DNA of 64,000 nucleotides from an uncultured Acidobacteriota bacterium. GTDB taxonomy: Bacteria > Acidobacteriota > Thermoanaerobaculia > UBA5066. Made by a program: the position numbers and the translations under genes. The stretch lies in NCBI GenBank assembly GCA_963779415.1, contig CAVZYA010000002.1, forward strand, positions 352,001-416,000, in the 5' to 3' direction. Below, piece after piece: positions 1 through 12,135 of this stretch (positions are counted from its first letter, which is position 1; every line of letters starts with the position of its first letter). The notes below the pieces were generated by a model, which worked only from the letters and a program-made list of their open reading frames with translations, searched no databases and was not told where the DNA came from.

Positions 1-1608
1 GAGAGAGTCGTCGAGAAGATCGTCGAGAAGACCGTCCCCGGCGCCGCCGCCCCGGCGGACTGGACCCTCGTCCGCGGCTCTCTCTCCTCCGTCGAGTCGG
101 CGCGGACCCAGGTGGACGTCCTGACCCGCTTCATCGCGCAGGCCGCCACGCATGCGTCGCGCGTCGCCCTCCTCGTCCTCCGGAACGACCGGATCACGGG
201 ATGGAAGGCGATGGGCTTCGACGCCTCGGGCGGACACGACGAGTCGGTTCGCTCGGCCGACCTCGGCGCGGAGGAGGACGCCTTCGCCAGCGACGTGATC
301 CGCGCCCAGCGTTCGCGCCTCGCGGAGCCCCCCGACGAGTCCGCGCCGCTCCGGAAGGCGCTGGGCGGACGGCCGGCCGCGCGGACGCTCCTCGTGCCGA
401 TGGTCATCCGGGACCGTCTCGCCGGACTCGTCTACGCGGACGAGCTCCCCGGCGAGGAGGGGCGGCTGAACGAAGCGGCCATCGAAGTCCTCACGTTCGT
501 CACGGGACTCGCGGTGGACCTCCTCGCCGCCCGGAAGAAGATCCCCTCGCCCGCGCTGACGCCGACCGGGGAGTCGATCGAGCACTTCCGGGTCGTCGCG
601 CACGAGGCGCCGGCCGCAAGGCCCGCTCCCCCCCTGGTCTTCGACGTTCCGGCTGCTGCCGCGCCGGCCGGGCCGGCGCGCGAGCCGGTCAAGCACGCGG
701 CCCTCGAGCCGCCGGTCTCGGCGAGCGGAATCCGGCCGCGCCCGATGGCGGCCGAAGAGCAGCTTCGCGCTCTCGCCGAGTCGGCCGGGATCACCCGGAA
801 GCCGGTTCCTCCGGCTCCTGGCGACGCCGGGGTCACCGTCGCCGTCCCGACGCTCGTTCCGCCGCCTCCACAGCCTCCGCCGCCGCACGTCGCGGCCCCG
901 CCGCCCTCCCATCTACTCGCTCCTCCGCCCCCGCCGGTTCCGGTCGAGCCTCCTACACCGGCGGCGCCTCCGGAGCTGGACCTTCACCTCGAACCCGTCG
1001 CGGAGCCCGCGCACACGCCCCCGCCGCCGGCGCCGACGGTTCCGGCACTCGCACCCCCGCCGGTCCCGACCCGCCCGCCGAGTTCCTTCCCGCCCCCTCT
1101 TTCGCAGACGACGACCGGCGACATCAGGCAGGCTTTCGACTCCCTGCGCGGTACCGCCGGGCCCTCCGTTCCCGCTCAGGTCCCTCCCCCCGCCGTCATT
1201 CCACACGCTCCCCCGCCGGCCCCCATGACGCCGCCCCCCACGATTCCCGCCGTCGGCGCAAAGCCTGCGGCTGCGGCCCCAACGACCGAGGTCCGTCCGA
1301 TTTCCGGCTTCATCCCGCGCTCACGGCTCGCGGGGGGAGCCGCCGATCCTCAGCGGCAGCGGGACGACGCCCGCCGCCTCGCCCGTCTTCTCGTCTCCGA
1401 GATCAAGCTCTACAACGAAAAGAAGGTCGAGGAAGGGCGCGCGGCGAACGACCTCTACGAGCGGCTGAAGGACGACATCGACCGGAGCCGCCAGGTCTTC
1501 GAGGAACGGACTCCCGAAGCGATCCGCCGCGAGGGGGACTTCTTCCGCGACGAGCTCGTCCGGATCCTCGCCGACGGACGCGCCGAGGCGCTTGGCTCCG
1601 CGGGCTGA
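1..1608 (+). CDS. GAF-domain protein with long Pro/Ala linker and RomX-like C-terminal helical domain (5' end lies outside the window)
   Basis: Frame is open from base 1 (ERVVEKIVEK...). GAF-like segment LLVPMVIRDRLAGLVYAD, about 250 aa of Pro-rich linker, C-terminus ARRLARLLVSEIKLYNEKKVEEGR...DLYERLKDDIDRSR. Confidence 0.7.
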   Translation, partial: ERVVEKIVEKTVPGAAAPADWTLVRGSLSSVESARTQVDVLTRFIAQAATHASRVALLVLRNDRITGWKAMGFDASGGHDESVRSADLGAEEDAFASDVIRAQRSRLAEPPDESAPLRKALGGRPAARTLLVPMVIRDRLAGLVYADELPGEEGRLNEAAIEVLTFVTGLAVDLLAARKKIPSPALTPTGESIEHFRVVAHEAPAARPAPPLVFDVPAAAAPAGPAREPVKHAALEPPVSASGIRPRPMAAEEQLRALAESAGITRKPVPPAPGDAGVTVAVPTLVPPPPQPPPPHVAAPPPSHLLAPPPPPVPVEPPTPAAPPELDLHLEPVAEPAHTPPPPAPTVPALAPPPVPTRPPSSFPPPLSQTTTGDIRQAFDSLRGTAGPSVPAQVPPPAVIPHAPPPAPMTPPPTIPAVGAKPAAAAPTTEVRPISGFIPRSRLAGGAADPQRQRDDARRLARLLVSEIKLYNEKKVEEGRAANDLYERLKDDIDRSRQVFEERTPEAIRREGDFFRDELVRILADGRAEALGSAG

Positions 1609-3880
1609 CGACGCTCGCCCGATCGTGACCCGACCCGTGAGGCGCACGACGGCCTGCGCCGTTTTCCTGCTGCTGCTCGCATCGCCGGGGCTCTTCGGAG
1701 ACGAGCCGGCGATCCCTCTCTCGAGTCCGAGCGAGCGGCTCGCGACGTTCCGGCAGCTCCTTCGGGAGGAGGGGAGCGCCTCGTCCCGCGCCGCCGCGGT
1801 GGGACTGCCGCTCAGCGCCGGAGAGAGTCTCTGGCCCGTCCGGCTTCGGACGGCCCGGGCAGTTCTCGCCCTCCCGGGGGGGAGCGATCCGACGATCGGA
1901 ACCACGGACGCTCTCCCGACGGGCCGGCTCGGGCTCCCCGGCCTCGCGGGCTGGATCTCACTGATGGGGGAGAACCCGACCGTCCGCGCGCTTCTCGCCT
2001 ACGCGACGTCCGAGCCGTTCGAGCCTCTCGCGCGCGACGCCGCGGTCCTCGCCGCGCGGGTCGCGCGGACCTCCGGAGAGAAGAGCGCCGCGCGGACGGC
2101 TCTGGCCGGATGGGACACGCACGGGCCGCGGGGAGCGCGGGCCGCCATCGACATCGCGCTCGCGCGCGCCCGTGTCGCGGCGACCGCCGCCGACGCGAGG
2201 CGGCTCCGTCTGGGACTCGCGGCCGCGTTTCCCGACGCTCCGGAACGGGCCGGAGATCTCTTCGACACAACCGACCTCGCCGAGTTCGAAGCGGCCGTTC
2301 GCGCAGGCCCCGAAGAGGTCCGGGCGGCTCGCGCTCTCGTCCTCGTCTCCCGCAATTCGAGGCAGGCCTCGAGGCTCGTTCCCCGCTTTCCCGTCTCGAC
2401 GGCCGCCCGGCTCGACGCCGCCCAGACTCGCCTCGCCCTCGGCGATACCGTAGAGGCGCTCCGGATCGCCCGGCTGGTCCGGGCCTCCGGGACAGACGGC
2501 GTGCCCGCTCTCCGTTCACGCGCCCTCGAGCTCGACGCCGAGATGAGAAGCCTCCTTCGGAGCGAGAGCGCGCCGGCCCCGGGGCGCCGCTCGCGCCACG
2601 GACGCGCGAAGAGACCCACGACTCCCCCCGTCGCGCCCCGGGCCTTCAGCGACCCGGCACGCCGACGTGCCGACGAATTTCTTTCTCGCGCAGACGCGCT
2701 CTTCGCACAGCCCCTCGCCGCGGCCGACCGCCGACGCCTTCTCGCAGACGCCGCGCGCCTCGCGCACCGATCGGGCCGGGACGACATCGCCCGCCGCCTT
2801 CTCGAGGAGCTTCTCGTTCTCGATCCCGGCTCGGAGGCGGTCGCGAGCGACCTCTTCCGGGAAGCCTTCGAGGAATACCGGCACGGCCGATTCGCCGAGG
2901 CGGCCGCCACCTTCGAGCAGCAGGCTCTCCTCTATCGCGAACCCGCGATCCGCCGGCGTTCGACGTATTGGGCCGGGCGCGCCCGCGAGAAGGCCGGTTC
3001 GGCGGAGGCGGCGCACGCACACTTCGCGTCCCTCCTCGCCGGCACTTCGCCCGACCTCTATGCAACCTGGGCGGCAGCGGCGCTCGGTCTCCCGCCTCCC
3101 GGAGGGGCACCGTCCCCACCCCTCGGGGAGGACCCGGGCGGCCTCGGCGCCGACTCTCCGGGGCTCCCTTCGCGCGAGCTCCTCGCCTGTGGCCTTCCCG
3201 ACCTCGCCGAGGACGCCGCCGAGGCGGAGGGGAGCGACGATCCTCTCTTTCTCGCGTCCACCGCGGCGGAGAGGGGAGACCACCGCCGCGCCGTCACGTA
3301 TCTCAAACAGCGCTGGCCCGAGCTCGGCTCGCCGGAGGAGGGAGGCGTCCCCCTCTTCGTCCGGCATCTCTATTACCCCAACGACCATGCGGCCCTTCTC
3401 TCCGGCCTCGCGACCGCCTCCGCGGTCCCCCCCGCCCTCGTCTTCGGCCTCGTCCGGCAGGAGAGCGTCTTCTCCTCCGGCATCCATTCCCGCGCGGGCG
3501 CCGTCGGGCTGATGCAGCTGATGCCGGCCACCGGGCGGCAGCTCCACCGGCGCGAAGGACACGGGGGACGCCCCGATCTCGAGAACCCCGCGGTCAACGC
3601 CCGTCTCGGCGTCACCTACCTGCGCCGGCTCCTCGACGACTTCGGCGGAGACGCCGTCCTCGCCCTCGCCGCCTACAACGCGGGGCCCGCGAGGGCGCGC
3701 CGATGGAGATCCGACCTCGCCGCCCTCCCCGCCGACGAGTTCTTCGAATCGATCCCCTTCTCCGAGACCCGCTTCTACGTCAAGCGCGTCCTCTTCTTCG
3801 AAGGGGCGTACGCGTCGCTCTACGGTGTTTCCGCCTCGGCCCCGGCCCCGCCGGTCAGGATCGGCTCCGTCGTTCCCTGA
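1592..3880 (+). CDS. Soluble lytic murein transglycosylase (Slt70-like, TPR plus SLT domain)
   Basis: Signal-peptide-like N-terminus; SLT motifs RQES, GAVGLMQLMPAT, ALAAYNAGP, ETRFYVKRV. Exact start uncertain. Confidence 0.85.
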   Translation: MAPRADDARPIVTRPVRRTTACAVFLLLLASPGLFGDEPAIPLSSPSERLATFRQLLREEGSASSRAAAVGLPLSAGESLWPVRLRTARAVLALPGGSDPTIGTTDALPTGRLGLPGLAGWISLMGENPTVRALLAYATSEPFEPLARDAAVLAARVARTSGEKSAARTALAGWDTHGPRGARAAIDIALARARVAATAADARRLRLGLAAAFPDAPERAGDLFDTTDLAEFEAAVRAGPEEVRAARALVLVSRNSRQASRLVPRFPVSTAARLDAAQTRLALGDTVEALRIARLVRASGTDGVPALRSRALELDAEMRSLLRSESAPAPGRRSRHGRAKRPTTPPVAPRAFSDPARRRADEFLSRADALFAQPLAAADRRRLLADAARLAHRSGRDDIARRLLEELLVLDPGSEAVASDLFREAFEEYRHGRFAEAAATFEQQALLYREPAIRRRSTYWAGRAREKAGSAEAAHAHFASLLAGTSPDLYATWAAAALGLPPPGGAPSPPLGEDPGGLGADSPGLPSRELLACGLPDLAEDAAEAEGSDDPLFLASTAAERGDHRRAVTYLKQRWPELGSPEEGGVPLFVRHLYYPNDHAALLSGLATASAVPPALVFGLVRQESVFSSGIHSRAGAVGLMQLMPATGRQLHRREGHGGRPDLENPAVNARLGVTYLRRLLDDFGGDAVLALAAYNAGPARARRWRSDLAALPADEFFESIPFSETRFYVKRVLFFEGAYASLYGVSASAPAPPVRIGSVVP

Positions 3881-10062: not shown

Positions 10063-10419
10063 TTAGTTCCCTTCCGCGAAGAGCCACGAAAGGACGGTCG
10101 AGACGATCGAGACGAGAAGGGCTCCGAGGAACGCCGCCAGAAAGCCGTCCACCCGGAAGTCGATCCCCAGCTTCGCCCCGAACCACGCCGTCAGGAGGAG
10201 CATGACGGCGTTCACGACGAGGGTGAAGAGGCCGAGCGTCAGGAGAATGATCGGACAGCTCACGAGCTTCAGGAACGGCCGGATCAGCGCGTTGAGGACG
10301 CCGAAAACGACCGCGATCGCGAGGATCGAGCCGATTCCCCCCGCTTCGATCCCCGGAACGAGCCGGGCCGCCACCCAGAGGGCCGCTGCGTTGACGAGAA
10401 TGCGGACGATGAAATTCAT
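10063..10419 (-). CDS. YvlD / phage holin-like 4TM membrane protein (DUF360)
   Basis: LNALIRPFLKLVSCPIILLTLGLFTLVVNA; likely start MNFIVRIL at 10419. Confidence 0.88.
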   Translation of the reverse strand: MNFIVRILVNAAALWVAARLVPGIEAGGIGSILAIAVVFGVLNALIRPFLKLVSCPIILLTLGLFTLVVNAVMLLLTAWFGAKLGIDFRVDGFLAAFLGALLVSIVSTVLSWLFAEGN

Positions 10420-10462
10420 GGTGGCCGGCATTGTAGAGGAGCGCCCACCGTAGAATGCTCCG

Positions 10463-10891
10463 GTGCCGGACCGGAAGTACCGTCAGAAGGGATATCAGGA
10501 CAACGCGCCGCACGCGCGGCGCAGCGACGCTTTCTCCGACGCCGGAAAGCGTCTCGAGGGGGCACCGAAAGGACGGGGCGCCGAGCGGAACCGCGACGAG
10601 GTCTTCCGCTGCAAGCTCTGCGGCGAGAAGAATGACTCCGAGGTGGCCGCCGCCTCCCTTTGCCGGAAGTGCCGGGCCCCCCTTCATGCCTGCAACCAAT
10701 GTCGTTTCTTCGACGGAGCGGCTCGCTGGCAATGCCGGGCCGAAATCCCCGCTCCGGTCGCCGCCAAGTCCAAGGCGAACGACTGCACGTTCTACGCCCC
10801 CGTCGTCACGCTTGACCTGACCGGCACGAAGTCCTCCGAGTCGCCGGACCAGGCCCGCGCAGCGTTCGACAAGCTCTTCGGGAAGCGTTAG
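10463..10891 (+). CDS. Cys-rich hypothetical (probable Zn-binding) protein
   Basis: CKLC, CRKC, HACNQC, C...ANDCTFY; TAGAAT 6 nt before the GTG. Confidence 0.7.
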   Translation: MPDRKYRQKGYQDNAPHARRSDAFSDAGKRLEGAPKGRGAERNRDEVFRCKLCGEKNDSEVAAASLCRKCRAPLHACNQCRFFDGAARWQCRAEIPAPVAAKSKANDCTFYAPVVTLDLTGTKSSESPDQARAAFDKLFGKR

Positions 10892-10899
10892 GAGGGGGT

Positions 10900-10922
10900 C
10901 CGGGGGAACACCGTTCCCCCGG
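10900..10922. terminator. Hairpin between convergent genes
   Basis: CCGGGGGAAC-acc-GTTCCCCCGG, perfect 10-bp stem; no U tract. Confidence 0.5.
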
Positions 10923-10931
10923 CATCGGGGT

Positions 10932-11336
10932 TCAGGACCGGAGAGCTTCCACGATGCGACGGAGTGCGGCACCAACCTCGGCGCCGATGGGCGCGAGCGC
11001 GGGCTTCCCGACGACGGCCATGACGCTCTCCGGGTTCATCGCGCGGACGATGGTCTTTCCCCCCTCCACCGAGATCGTCACGTTGCAGGGGAGGAGGACC
11101 CCCGCCTCCGGGGCCGCCGAGAGGGCCTTGTGGGCCGACGACGGATGGCAGGCCCCGAGAATCAGGTACGGCGCGACGTCCACGTCCAGCTTCTTCTTGA
11201 ACGTCGCTTTGACGTCGATCTCCGTGATGACGCCGAAGCCCTCGGCGGCGAGAAGTTCCCGGGCGCGAGCGACGGCGTTCTCGAAGGAACGGGACGAGAC
11301 GGTTTCATACGCGACCGGGGAGGTGGAGACGCTCAT
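10932..11336 (-). CDS. DUF302 family protein
   Basis: EGFGVITEIDVKATFKKKL, YLILGACHP, GVLLPCNV; start MSVSTSP at 11336. Confidence 0.92.
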   Translation of the reverse strand: MSVSTSPVAYETVSSRSFENAVARARELLAAEGFGVITEIDVKATFKKKLDVDVAPYLILGACHPSSAHKALSAAPEAGVLLPCNVTISVEGGKTIVRAMNPESVMAVVGKPALAPIGAEVGAALRRIVEALRS

Positions 11337-11539
11337 CGGGGCTCCATCGGCGTCACGCTCTTTTCCGGGCCGCCTCCGGATGCCTCCTCCCTCTTCTCTC
11401 CCGTCCCTCCGCAGCCTCCCCGGCCCCCGGCCGGGTTCGGCACGGCTCACGTCGGGACGCCGAAGCGCGGAAGGACGACCGTCTGGAGCAGCCACCAGCC
11501 GGCGAGGAAGAGGGCGAAGCCGAGGAGATCTCCCGACAT
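11333..11539 (-). CDS. Candidate small membrane selenoprotein (68 aa, UGA at codon 31); otherwise a 30-aa membrane peptide
   Basis: MSGDLLGFALFLAGWWLLQTVVLPRFGVPT-U-AVPNPAGGRGGCGG...MEPR. Internal TGA at 11449-11447; final TGA (11335-11333) overlaps the DUF302 ATG. Confidence 0.55.
11409..11445 (-). promoter_or_regulatory. Bacterial SECIS-like hairpin
   Basis: CCGUGCC-GAA-CCCGGCC-GGG-GGCCGGG-GA-GGCUGCGG starts 1 nt after the UGA; the G-rich apical loop begins 18 nt after the UGA. Confidence 0.5.
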
Positions 11540-11698
11540 CGCCCTGACTGTCGCTCTTTAGCTGCGAAGAGTCAATGAAGTCCGGAGGGGGCGCGGAAGG
11601 GTACAGGGGGACGACGCGAGAGCGTCGTCGCCACCGGGTTCCCCGGCGGAACGATCTCGAACAAGCGAAAGCTCATTCGGAAGGCTCTCGGAAGCTGC

Positions 11699-12135
11699 GT
11701 GAACAGGTCGGCGAAAGCGATCGTAATGGGCATCCTCGAGCGCGGCGGGCGGGTCCGGACGAAGGTCGTTCCGGGCGCTACTGGGCCGACGCTCAGGGGC
11801 GAGTCCGAGCGGATCTCCAGCCTGTCGTGACGACCTACACGGATGCCCTGCCCTCCTATCGTGGGCTCGAATAGATGCTCCTTCACGACACCGTGAACCA
11901 CCTAGAACCCTACGTCCGTGGGCGGGTTCATACTCAGGGAATCGAGAATTTCTGGAGCGCTTGAAGCGGGTCCGGAAGGGAACCTTCGTCAACGCGGTGC
12001 CCGCGCACGTTGGCGCTTATGTGGACGAGCAGGCGTTCCGGTTCTACGAGCGTGAGAAGAATGATGTCGGGCGACACGCGGTGGGGCGGCGGCCATTGGC
12101 CGGAAGCGGCTCACGTACAAACAGCTCATTGCGGA
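11699..12135 (+). pseudogene. Degenerate IS1595-family (ISXO2-type DDE) transposase
   Basis: Across shifting frames: KAIVMGILERGGRVRTKVVP, YTDALPSYRGLE*, VNH..YVRGRVHTQGIENFWS, LKR..KGTFV, YVDEQAFRF, KRLTYKQLI. Stop at 11872-11874, at least two frameshifts, N-terminus missing. Confidence 0.85.

Follow-up and report, generated by a model that had tools for sequence, protein, structure and literature searches.

Does a small open reading frame (ORF) that is interrupted by an in-frame TGA, and that lies on the minus strand directly before a DUF302 gene in the DNA of an uncultured Acidobacteriota bacterium, encode a protein with selenocysteine (Sec)? The ORF is part of a stretch of 64,000 nucleotides (nt), hereafter the window, for which a sequence-only reading had proposed a 68-residue membrane peptide with Sec at position 31, a hairpin resembling a bacterial Sec insertion sequence (SECIS) behind the UGA, and a coupling to DUF302. 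The conservation of the TGA among relatives, homologues with Cys in its place, a conserved hairpin and the presence of selA, selD and tRNA-Sec in the source genome support such a Sec-containing membrane peptide. On this comparison of sequences, the family is very probably a true selenoprotein family. Taken as a whole, a real gene of an unnamed selenoprotein family at 11539-11333 (-), with the role set out below, is the best explanation of the locus, and we expect it to hold.

An in-frame TGA in a gene for a single-helix membrane protein

The ORF, its single transmembrane helix, the motif behind the helix and the TGA are all present as described from the sequence alone. An ATG at 11539-11537 (-) opens a run of 30 codons (MSGDLLGFALFLAGWWLLQTVVLPRFGVPT) that ends at the TGA at 11449-11447, beyond which 37 further codons, one of them for Cys, stay open (AVPNPAGGRGGCGGTGEKREEASGGGPEKSVTPMEPR). 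The second stop, a TGA at 11335-11333, overlaps the DUF302 start codon at 11336-11334 (ATGA), again in line with the first description. The product would consist of a short acidic N-terminus and one hydrophobic helix (approximately residues 5-23, with about 20 hydrophobic residues), followed by P24-R-F-G-V-P-T30, Sec31, the segment AVPNPAGGRGG, Cys43 and a charged low-complexity tail. Cys43 is likely a resolving or co-ligand thiol.

The TGA occupies the same codon throughout the relatives

A six-frame search that reads through stops was run on 40 related genomes and the source genome (G000). Within the taxonomic family of the source genome, 21 of the 24 further members gave TGA-containing matches at E <= 1.2e-4, as did one of the 16 genomes that belong elsewhere in the order. 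The family members without such a match were G002 (65% complete), G005 and G020 (83% complete), the last of which gave a weak match with no stop. Twenty loci, that of G000 and those of 19 relatives, were excised from 10 genera. All 20 carry the TGA, within the core W-x-LLQ-x-VVLP[RK][LF]GVPT-U-xxPxPAGG[RG]-x(1-4)-C, and M1, L18, Q19, P24, G27, V28, T30, U31, P36, G38 and C43 are invariant in an alignment of 17 loci.

When 401 genomes sampled across the phylum were searched with a profile, the gene turned up in 95 (57 of 228 genera), with a TGA inside the best match in 90 of them; the match ends at position 30 in the other five. Together with 26 further loci from this search, the set comprises 46 loci from at least 30 genera, and all of them have TGA at the same codon. 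TAA or TAG, the outcome that would have refuted the sequence-only reading, ends no homologue at position 31 (0/46). In 41 of the 46 loci a start codon is found 28-31 codons ahead of the TGA, and all 46 keep at least 20 open codons behind it. While the first stop is always TGA, the second is TGA in 36, TAG in six and TAA in three, one locus running off the end of its contig. The tallies of relatives, of the gene and of selA include the unpublished genomes G025, G030, G088 and G190, on which none of the individual claims depends.

The family falls into two types. Type A, to which the window gene belongs, reads GVPT-U-AVPxP(A/R)G... and has a later Cys or none, and type B reads G[VI][PS]T-U-M[AS]x[AS]-C, that is, U-x4-C.

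Cys homologues and codon variation point to translation past the UGA

Behind the UGA, codons 34, 36 and 38 of the 20 excised loci differ in their third base only, the first two being constant (CCG 9 / CCC 9, CCG 12 / CCC 8 and GGC 14 / GGG 4 / GGT 1, respectively). From the hairpin to the Cys codon the distance is 2, 5 or 8 nt, so that the frame is kept, and P34, P36, G38 and C43 are conserved.

An alignment search of 5.8 billion proteins returned 40 matches, of which 24 end exactly at ...GV[PG]T because the gene calls were cut at the UGA. Fourteen have Cys at the Sec column, most of them continuing MSG[AG]C, and one has Gly; the remaining one, the sole named record ('hypothetical protein [Holophagales bacterium]'), is a frameshifted call. 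Cys versions of type A are represented by P0002 (GVPTCGAPGPAGGGTSC) and by P0004, P0008 and P0016 (C..AVPxP). Since Cys forms need no SECIS, the AVPxP segment is conserved as protein. Homologues with Cys, of the form GVPT-C-MSGxC as well as GVPT-C-AVPxP, are numerous in metagenomes.

An exhaustive profile search of 1.84 billion representatives gave 2,036 with E <= 1e-3, of which 52 reach E <= 1e-10. When read by a motif regular expression in the best 150 of the 2,036, the Sec column holds Cys in at least 107 (CMSGAC 30, CMSGGC 15, CMSGSC 11, and others), W in 10, R in four, S in three and G in one, with two entries truncated; 23 of the 150 escaped the expression, and several of these are visibly Cys forms. 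The entries with Trp include P0047, P0069, P0076, P0114, P0127, P0133 and P0139, and Trp, Arg, Ser and Gly are all one base away from TGA. These residues are likely the result of gene calling with a code in which TGA is Trp, or of sequence variants.

When 37 Sec forms are aligned together with 14 Cys forms, P24, G27, T30 and U/C31 are invariant in all 51. A genomic search with alignment A1, aimed at Cys forms only (pattern Cys TGY), gave three loci, two of them in Bryobacterales. A Sphaerisporangium locus was rejected as a Cys form, its match being spurious and out of frame. Homologues with TGA or Cys at position 31 and with conservation beyond it, the first thing that the sequence-only reading had proposed to look for, were found in both versions, the Cys forms at the exact column. 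The third-position variation, the in-frame spacers and the Cys homologues together indicate that the stretch after the UGA is translated.

A conserved hairpin follows the UGA

The two-part hairpin with its loop 18 nt past the UGA, as drawn from the window sequence, is borne out. Its upper stem of seven base pairs (bp) joins CCCGGCC at 11435-11429 to GGCCGGG at 11425-11419 around the apical loop GGG (11428-11426). In a DNA alignment of 20 sequences (A2), the seven-pair stem is paired in 95.5% of 133 cells. Shuffled alignments average 84.2 +/- 1.9 and never score as high (0/500), and slid controls range over 29-66%. Compensatory changes affect three of the seven pairs (14 cells). One covarying pair connects the third base of codon 36 (CCG 12 / CCC 8) with the first base of codon 40 (CGG 11 / GGG 8): CCG at Pro36 goes with CGG (Arg) at codon 40, and CCC with GGG (Gly). 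In this Arg/Gly swap, the RNA structure sets the amino acid.

For the phylum-wide set, hairpins were counted in each sequence and not by the columns of alignment A5, because variable loop lengths misalign the 3' arms in the latter. Of the 46 loci, 43 have a stem of 6 bp or more that begins 9-18 nt past the UGA, and 32 have one of 7 bp or more. The position of the stem is kept and its sequence varies (CCGGCC, CCGTCC, CCCGCC, CCGAC, CCGCGC, CGATCTCGG and others). With the compensatory changes, the conserved hairpin for which a check had been proposed is therefore in place. SelB recognises G and U in the apical loop, and the loop of a SECIS is reported in the bSECISearch literature to lie 16-37 nt downstream of the UGA and to be rich in G/U. 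The apical loops of type B contain GUC, GGUC or GAUC in eight of 10 cases, the remaining two having GUA and CGGGC. Both Cys-form genes from Bryobacterales metagenome-assembled genomes lack the hairpin (2/2), with folding energies of -15.4 and -15.9 kcal/mol against -27.1 kcal/mol here (60 nt). A scan of 10800-11700 with Rfam at E <= 10 gave four chance-level matches and no SECIS family.

Several observations weigh against the selenoprotein assignment. At the window's G+C content of 68.7%, stops occur at a frequency of 1.25% when all six frames are counted, and a run of 37 open codons has a chance of P = 0.63. The hairpin energy of -30.4 kcal/mol corresponds to z = -1.97, and 10 of 200 shuffles are as stable. 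The background was taken from the source genome itself, at 1,012 true TGA stops that close long ORFs with high G+C at third codon positions (GC3): a hairpin of at least 7 bp stands in the same place after 12% of them, and 12.7% of 600 sampled stops fold at least as stably. Moreover, the relatives are kin, so that the counts of loci given above overstate independence, and a search of sequencing runs listed no RNA run with the locus, the best DNA runs sharing <=0.26 of words. The hairpin and the open frame of the window are thus by themselves no better than chance, and their significance comes only from the comparison with relatives; at 69% G+C, evidence of this kind from one sequence is worthless and comparison is decisive.

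The background figures also bear on the alternative of a 30-residue micropeptide with a normal UGA stop, behind which the hairpin would act as a regulatory or stabilising RNA and no Sec would be made. The frequency of such hairpins after true TGA stops would fit this alternative, as would the fact that TGA is the commonest stop here (36 of the 45 second stops). However, the alignment with the Cys homologues continues through the stop, codons beyond it vary at the third position with spacers that preserve the frame, and 46 TGA with never a TAA or TAG would arise with a probability of 0.8^46 ~ 3e-5. In addition, the gene is nearly restricted to selA-positive genomes (93 of the 95 carriers), and no T-run follows the hairpin. 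We therefore consider a micropeptide very improbable.

Sec machinery of the source genome and a frameshifted selB

Decoding of the UGA as Sec requires the genes selA, selB, selC and selD, whose presence the sequence-only reading had left to be checked. The check succeeded for selA (439.7 bits against a cut-off of 267.9), for the tRNA-SeC gene and for selD (contig C2:866668-867636 (+), locus L010), which is itself a selenoprotein gene (347.8 bits with one TGA, SAG-U-ACKLG); selB is present as well, but in this assembly it is broken by two 1-base frameshifts. A hairpin can also form after the selD UGA. Across the phylum, selA was detected in 301 of the 401 genomes, and the small gene in 93 of these 301 as compared to two of the 100 selA-negative genomes, a cross-tabulation done by hand on genomes that are kin and given without a formal test. 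The two carriers without selA are G365 (64% complete) and G267 (95% complete).

The state of selB stands with the points against the assignment, as far as the source strain is concerned. Two insertions of one base each divide the gene (C2:454618-456515, -; L001/L003) among three reading frames. The extra bases, at L003:1458 and L003:2033, are absent from related contigs (run X4, 90-95% alike), and selB is a single frame above the cut-off in six of the seven other genomes of the genus. The rpoB, rpoC and two uvrA genes of the source genome show no frameshift in 4,926 codons. Given that the frame is intact in these codons and in the related selB genes, the lesion may be real, and the source strain might make only the 30-residue peptide.

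The locus could accordingly be the relic of a strain that has just lost Sec decoding through its frameshifted selB and is left with the 30-residue helix peptide, or with nothing useful. The intact selB genes of the genus fit such a loss, and the unshifted codons leave a generally error-ridden assembly without evidence. Nevertheless, selA, the Sec form of selD, tRNA-Sec and the small gene are all intact, which is unexpected if selB has long been dead with two indels. The completeness of 92% (three contigs), against 99% for the three-contig relative G003, hints at consensus errors. Because these other genes are undamaged, we regard a recent loss of SelB as unlikely, a local consensus error being the alternative; it would in any case concern the strain and not the family.

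An unnamed family of bacterial selenoproteins

The window protein matches no family at E <= 10 in Pfam-A or NCBIfam (r20.0, June 2026), and the 10 Cys forms gave only chance-level matches in these collections (E 0.035-0.31, far below cut-offs). Among the 119 prokaryotic selenoprotein families in Table 1 of a 2026 inventory (PMC13188914), there is no single-helix family with GVPT-U. The text of the inventory has no mention of a transmembrane or membrane protein, of Acidobacteri or of DUF302, and the deep-Sep paper, in its text, has no transmembrane or membrane protein and no DUF302 and mentions Acidobacteri once, in a row for a test genome; the supplements of both may list unnamed candidates. 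Literature searches found no description of the gene, and nothing relevant on a selenoprotein with DUF302 or, among the papers listed, on Acidobacteriota selenocysteine. In the ESM Atlas, an unnamed 'hypothetical protein' cluster of 123 members (score 0.84) provides a lead only. The statement, made from the sequence alone, that no named selenoprotein family could be assigned thus stands, and the family is filed as a previously unnamed one of a known kind, the bacterial selenoproteins.

The known selenoproteins decoded through SelB and a SECIS, such as FdhA and the SelD of this genome, share with it the in-frame UGA, the 3' hairpin, the Cys homologues and the occurrence in genomes with selA, selD and tRNA-Sec. 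The small-gene product differs in being very small and single-pass, and in that its SECIS, since it lies inside the coding sequence, would dictate the peptide part P-A-G-G-R/G.

The Tso operon combines the ArsR/SmtB-type TsoR with TsoA, a small selenoprotein with a LULAxC motif (NF045707, NF045695; Table 1 of PMC13188914). There, too, a small selenoprotein is encoded behind an ArsR-type regulator and has its Sec a few residues ahead of a Cys. However, the ArsR proteins here are below the TsoR cut-off, and the small protein has no TsoA or other NCBIfam match at E <= 10. The putative mercuric transport selenoprotein MerT (PF02411, motif C/SxxU; same table) is likewise a small inner-membrane protein with a Sec/Cys pair, of a family that handles a thiophilic metal. 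In contrast to MerT, the window protein has no PF02411 match and a single helix where MerT has three, and the survey of the 46 loci showed no adjoining mer genes. The FmdB zinc ribbons (TIGR02605) are another group of tiny Cys-rich proteins, of which the same inventory lists a selenoprotein form (UxxU); they are neighbours and not homologues of the small protein, and those found here carry Cys, not Sec. SELENOS and SELENOK resemble it in their one transmembrane helix and disordered cytosolic Sec tail with a possible selenenylsulfide to a nearby Cys, which is described for SelS in the abstract of PMC3628699. In these proteins, Sec is near the C-terminus, whereas it lies about seven residues past the helix here, and the SECIS type differs.

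A bacterial single-pass membrane selenoprotein is an unusual type. In this phylum, a major one in soil and sediment, 95 of the 401 sampled genomes carry the gene, which would place it among the commoner selenoprotein genes there, and its Cys relatives amount to about 2,000 clusters at 50% identity. Gene callers miss it or end it at Thr30, as in the 24 of 40 database entries, and a few read the UGA as Trp.

Gene neighbourhood

The neighbours of the small gene were surveyed as high-GC3 ORFs of at least 70 residues, a heuristic choice, within +/-1.5 kb of the 46 loci. The 218 ORFs obtained were scanned against Pfam at E <= 1e-5, and the counts refer to the strand of the small gene (Table 1).

Table 1. 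Features at the window locus and neighbours of the small gene in the 46 loci
Feature	Position or loci	Strand	Remarks
Small gene, probable selenoprotein	11333..11539	-	68 codons + stop; same layout in 45 other loci
In-frame TGA, read as selenocysteine, codon 31	11447..11449	-	TGA in 46/46 loci; Cys homologues
SECIS-like two-part hairpin	11409..11445	-	fold, alignment pairing, per-locus stem search
Cys43 codon (TGC)	11411..11413	-	Cys in 19/20 loci of the same family
Promoter-like element	11547..11575	-	TTGACT 11575-11570, 17-nt spacer, GACAGT 11552-11547, 7 nt before ATG
DUF302 gene, 134 residues	10932..11336	-	PF03625, E 3.5e-21, 75.3 bits against cut-off 23
ArsR-family regulator, immediately upstream	11/46 loci		stop overlaps small-gene start (ATGA/GTGA) in 8
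DUF302, downstream	13/46 loci		plus one divergent copy
FmdB zinc ribbon (TIGR02605), right after small gene	6/46 loci		
RND pump, upstream	8/46 loci		
P-II-like protein (PG0541-family), upstream	6/46 loci		
S-adenosylmethionine (SAM) methyltransferase overlapping small-gene stop	3 loci (L030, L032, L034)		all of genus g4
Split YeeE/YedE + thioredoxin-like protein	1 locus (L042)		
TrxC-type thioredoxin	1 locus (L050)		
DUF442	1 locus (L052)		
YgaP-like transmembrane protein	2 loci (L030, L063)		

The GACHP and LLPC cysteine motifs that had been noted in the DUF302 protein were confirmed in its sequence and in an alignment of 12 sequences (A4). The ATGA overlap between the small gene and DUF302 is also found in G001. 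The proposed coupling to DUF302 holds in part: the genes overlap here and DUF302 is a frequent neighbour, but no more than 13 of the 46 loci have it downstream in the same orientation, and it is not obligatory. DUF302 genes of Synechocystis belong to an ArsR-linked sqr operon tied to arsenic (PMC5061849), and those of Arthrobacter plasmids occur in CsoR-regulated sulfur-dioxygenase/rhodanese/TauE modules (PMC6305408).

The overlap with the downstream gene raises the possibility that the small gene is a selenium-sensing leader, in which read-through of UGA31 would couple the translation of DUF302 to the Sec supply and the peptide itself would matter little. Such stop/start overlaps occur in G000, G001, g4 (with the methyltransferase) and L042, and the tail past the motif is poorly conserved. 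Yet the helix and the PRLGVPT-U/C motif are strongly conserved, more than 100 Cys forms among the best 150 keep the motif and need no recoding, and the downstream gene varies by lineage and is often 50-500 nt away. We hold a leader to be quite improbable.

The stretch could alternatively be an N-terminal extension of DUF302, which would start at the GTG at 11495 and give a 187-residue ORF (10932-11495), or a frameshifted fusion, and open frames of about 200 residues do span the region in several relatives. Long open frames are, however, expected by chance at 69% G+C. In all 12 sequences the DUF302 alignments start at the ATG-proximal MS..VAxE, the conserved upstream frame is that of the small gene, and an FmdB gene lies between the two in many genomes. 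An extension or fusion is thus extremely improbable, and a separate selenoprotein gene remains the reading that we follow.

The stop of arsR overlaps the start of the small gene in L020, L021, L023, L024, L026, L027, L029 and L039. Helix 3 of the ArsR proteins contains ERC-V, a Cys precedes their TQANVSKHL segment, and IC-x-x-[VI]C is found at the C-terminus. These proteins pass only the cut-off of the generic ArsR/SmtB model, and their PDB matches are generic; an assignment to a sensor subclass was rejected, as TsoR (62.6-64.3 against 115 bits), BigR and CmtR all stayed below their cut-offs. With this regulator, the FmdB zinc ribbon and DUF302, the gene ties together recurrent neighbours of unclear role.

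Side observations concern three of these neighbours. In L040 (G312, 1249-1677 (-)), the frame of the small gene runs without a stop into FmdB as a 143-codon frame, and in L043 (G263, 1408-1641 (-)) the tail of the small protein itself carries CGTCGG...CPTCGH (CxxC...CxxC). As sequence arrangements, the two hint that the Sec module and Cys4 ribbons may be functionally connected. In genus g4, DUF6125 accompanies the methyltransferase in L032 only, a YgaP-like membrane protein follows in G019, and the methyltransferase gives weak, sub-threshold matches to arsenite-methyltransferase selenoprotein models.

Two further ORFs of the window lie beyond DUF302. A gene for a Phage_holin_4_2 membrane protein with four transmembrane segments (10063-10431 (-)) is situated downstream of it, as it is in G006, and a Cys-rich ORF of 142 residues (10463-10891 (+), CKLCG...CRKC...CNQC), with a weak DUF7577 match, stands between DUF302 and the holin gene.

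Proposed function

The conserved parts and the neighbours suggest the following mechanism. A protein of about 60-75 residues, composed of an acidic N-terminus, a transmembrane helix, the turn P-[RK]-[LF]-G-V-P-T and Sec (Cys in many homologues), would be made by the ordinary bacterial route, in which SelB, tRNA-Sec and an mRNA hairpin about 11 nt past the UGA recode this codon. The acidic N-terminus and the Arg/Lys behind the helix suggest an N-out/C-in orientation, which would place the selenolate at the cytoplasmic face of the membrane. The selenolate may act with a Cys close by (spaced as U-x4-C in one of the subtypes and as U-x10-13-C in that of the window), forming a selenenylsulfide or a chelate, and alone where no second Cys exists. 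It would serve as nucleophile or ligand for thiophilic species, that is, soft metal(loid)s or reactive sulfur or selenium, which could be handed over to soluble partners encoded nearby (the FmdB Cys4 ribbon, DUF302, thioredoxin, YeeE/YedE or the SAM methyltransferase). The unit would be controlled by an ArsR/SmtB-type repressor, possibly in a response to thiol stress or soft metals.

A membrane selenol/thiol site for thiophilic species is put forward tentatively, short of being probable. From the repressor, the Cys4 ribbon, the thioredoxin, YeeE/YedE, the methyltransferase and DUF302 we infer a redox or metal-handling role. Soft metal(loid)s and reactive sulfur or selenium species are almost equally possible as its targets, the former barely ahead and neither reaching an even chance, and a purely regulatory role has little probability.

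The evidence on function is mixed. The neighbours are heterogeneous, with DUF302 and FmdB each confined to a minority of loci and no Pfam neighbour at all in 11 of 46. The second Cys is absent from several of the more distant type-A members. The upstream RND pump is not clearly a heavy-metal pump like CzcA, its score being higher with the multidrug type.

A more specific and improbable version is a relay, in which the membrane selenolate would capture selenide, persulfide or ions of the As(III), Hg(II) or Cd(II) type and pass them to FmdB, DUF302, thioredoxin or the methyltransferase, while ArsR would sense the same species. Such a module would also be gated by the selenium supply in its expression, as Sec is required at the UGA of the small gene itself and the stop of this gene overlaps the start codon behind it. 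If true, this relay would give first functions to DUF302 and FmdB.

Upstream region of the window gene

The spacer of the promoter-like element holds an imperfect palindrome, CTCTTCGCAGCTAAAGAG (11571-11554). The pattern TTGAC(T/A)CTTTATAAC(T/C)AAAGAG..GA(C/T)AGT is conserved in G001, G003 and G007 of the same genus (L016-L018), with one palindrome substitution in G007 (CTCTATAAC); G006 (L019) retains TTGAC only. As a candidate ArsR target, the palindrome would read TTGACTCTTTATAACTAAAGAG, in a form that is partly degenerate in G000. A scan for consensus promoters and terminators found nothing, and the neighbour survey showed no arsR upstream of the small gene in the window or the genus. Judged by its sequence, the element is possibly a promoter with an ArsR-type operator-like palindrome, from which a near-leaderless mRNA would start. 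Further upstream, a 29-residue ORF at 11875-11961 (+) has a weak match to an ISXO2-like (IS1595) transposase (E 0.005, below the cut-off); this IS1595 fragment may be the remnant of an insertion that replaced the upstream region.

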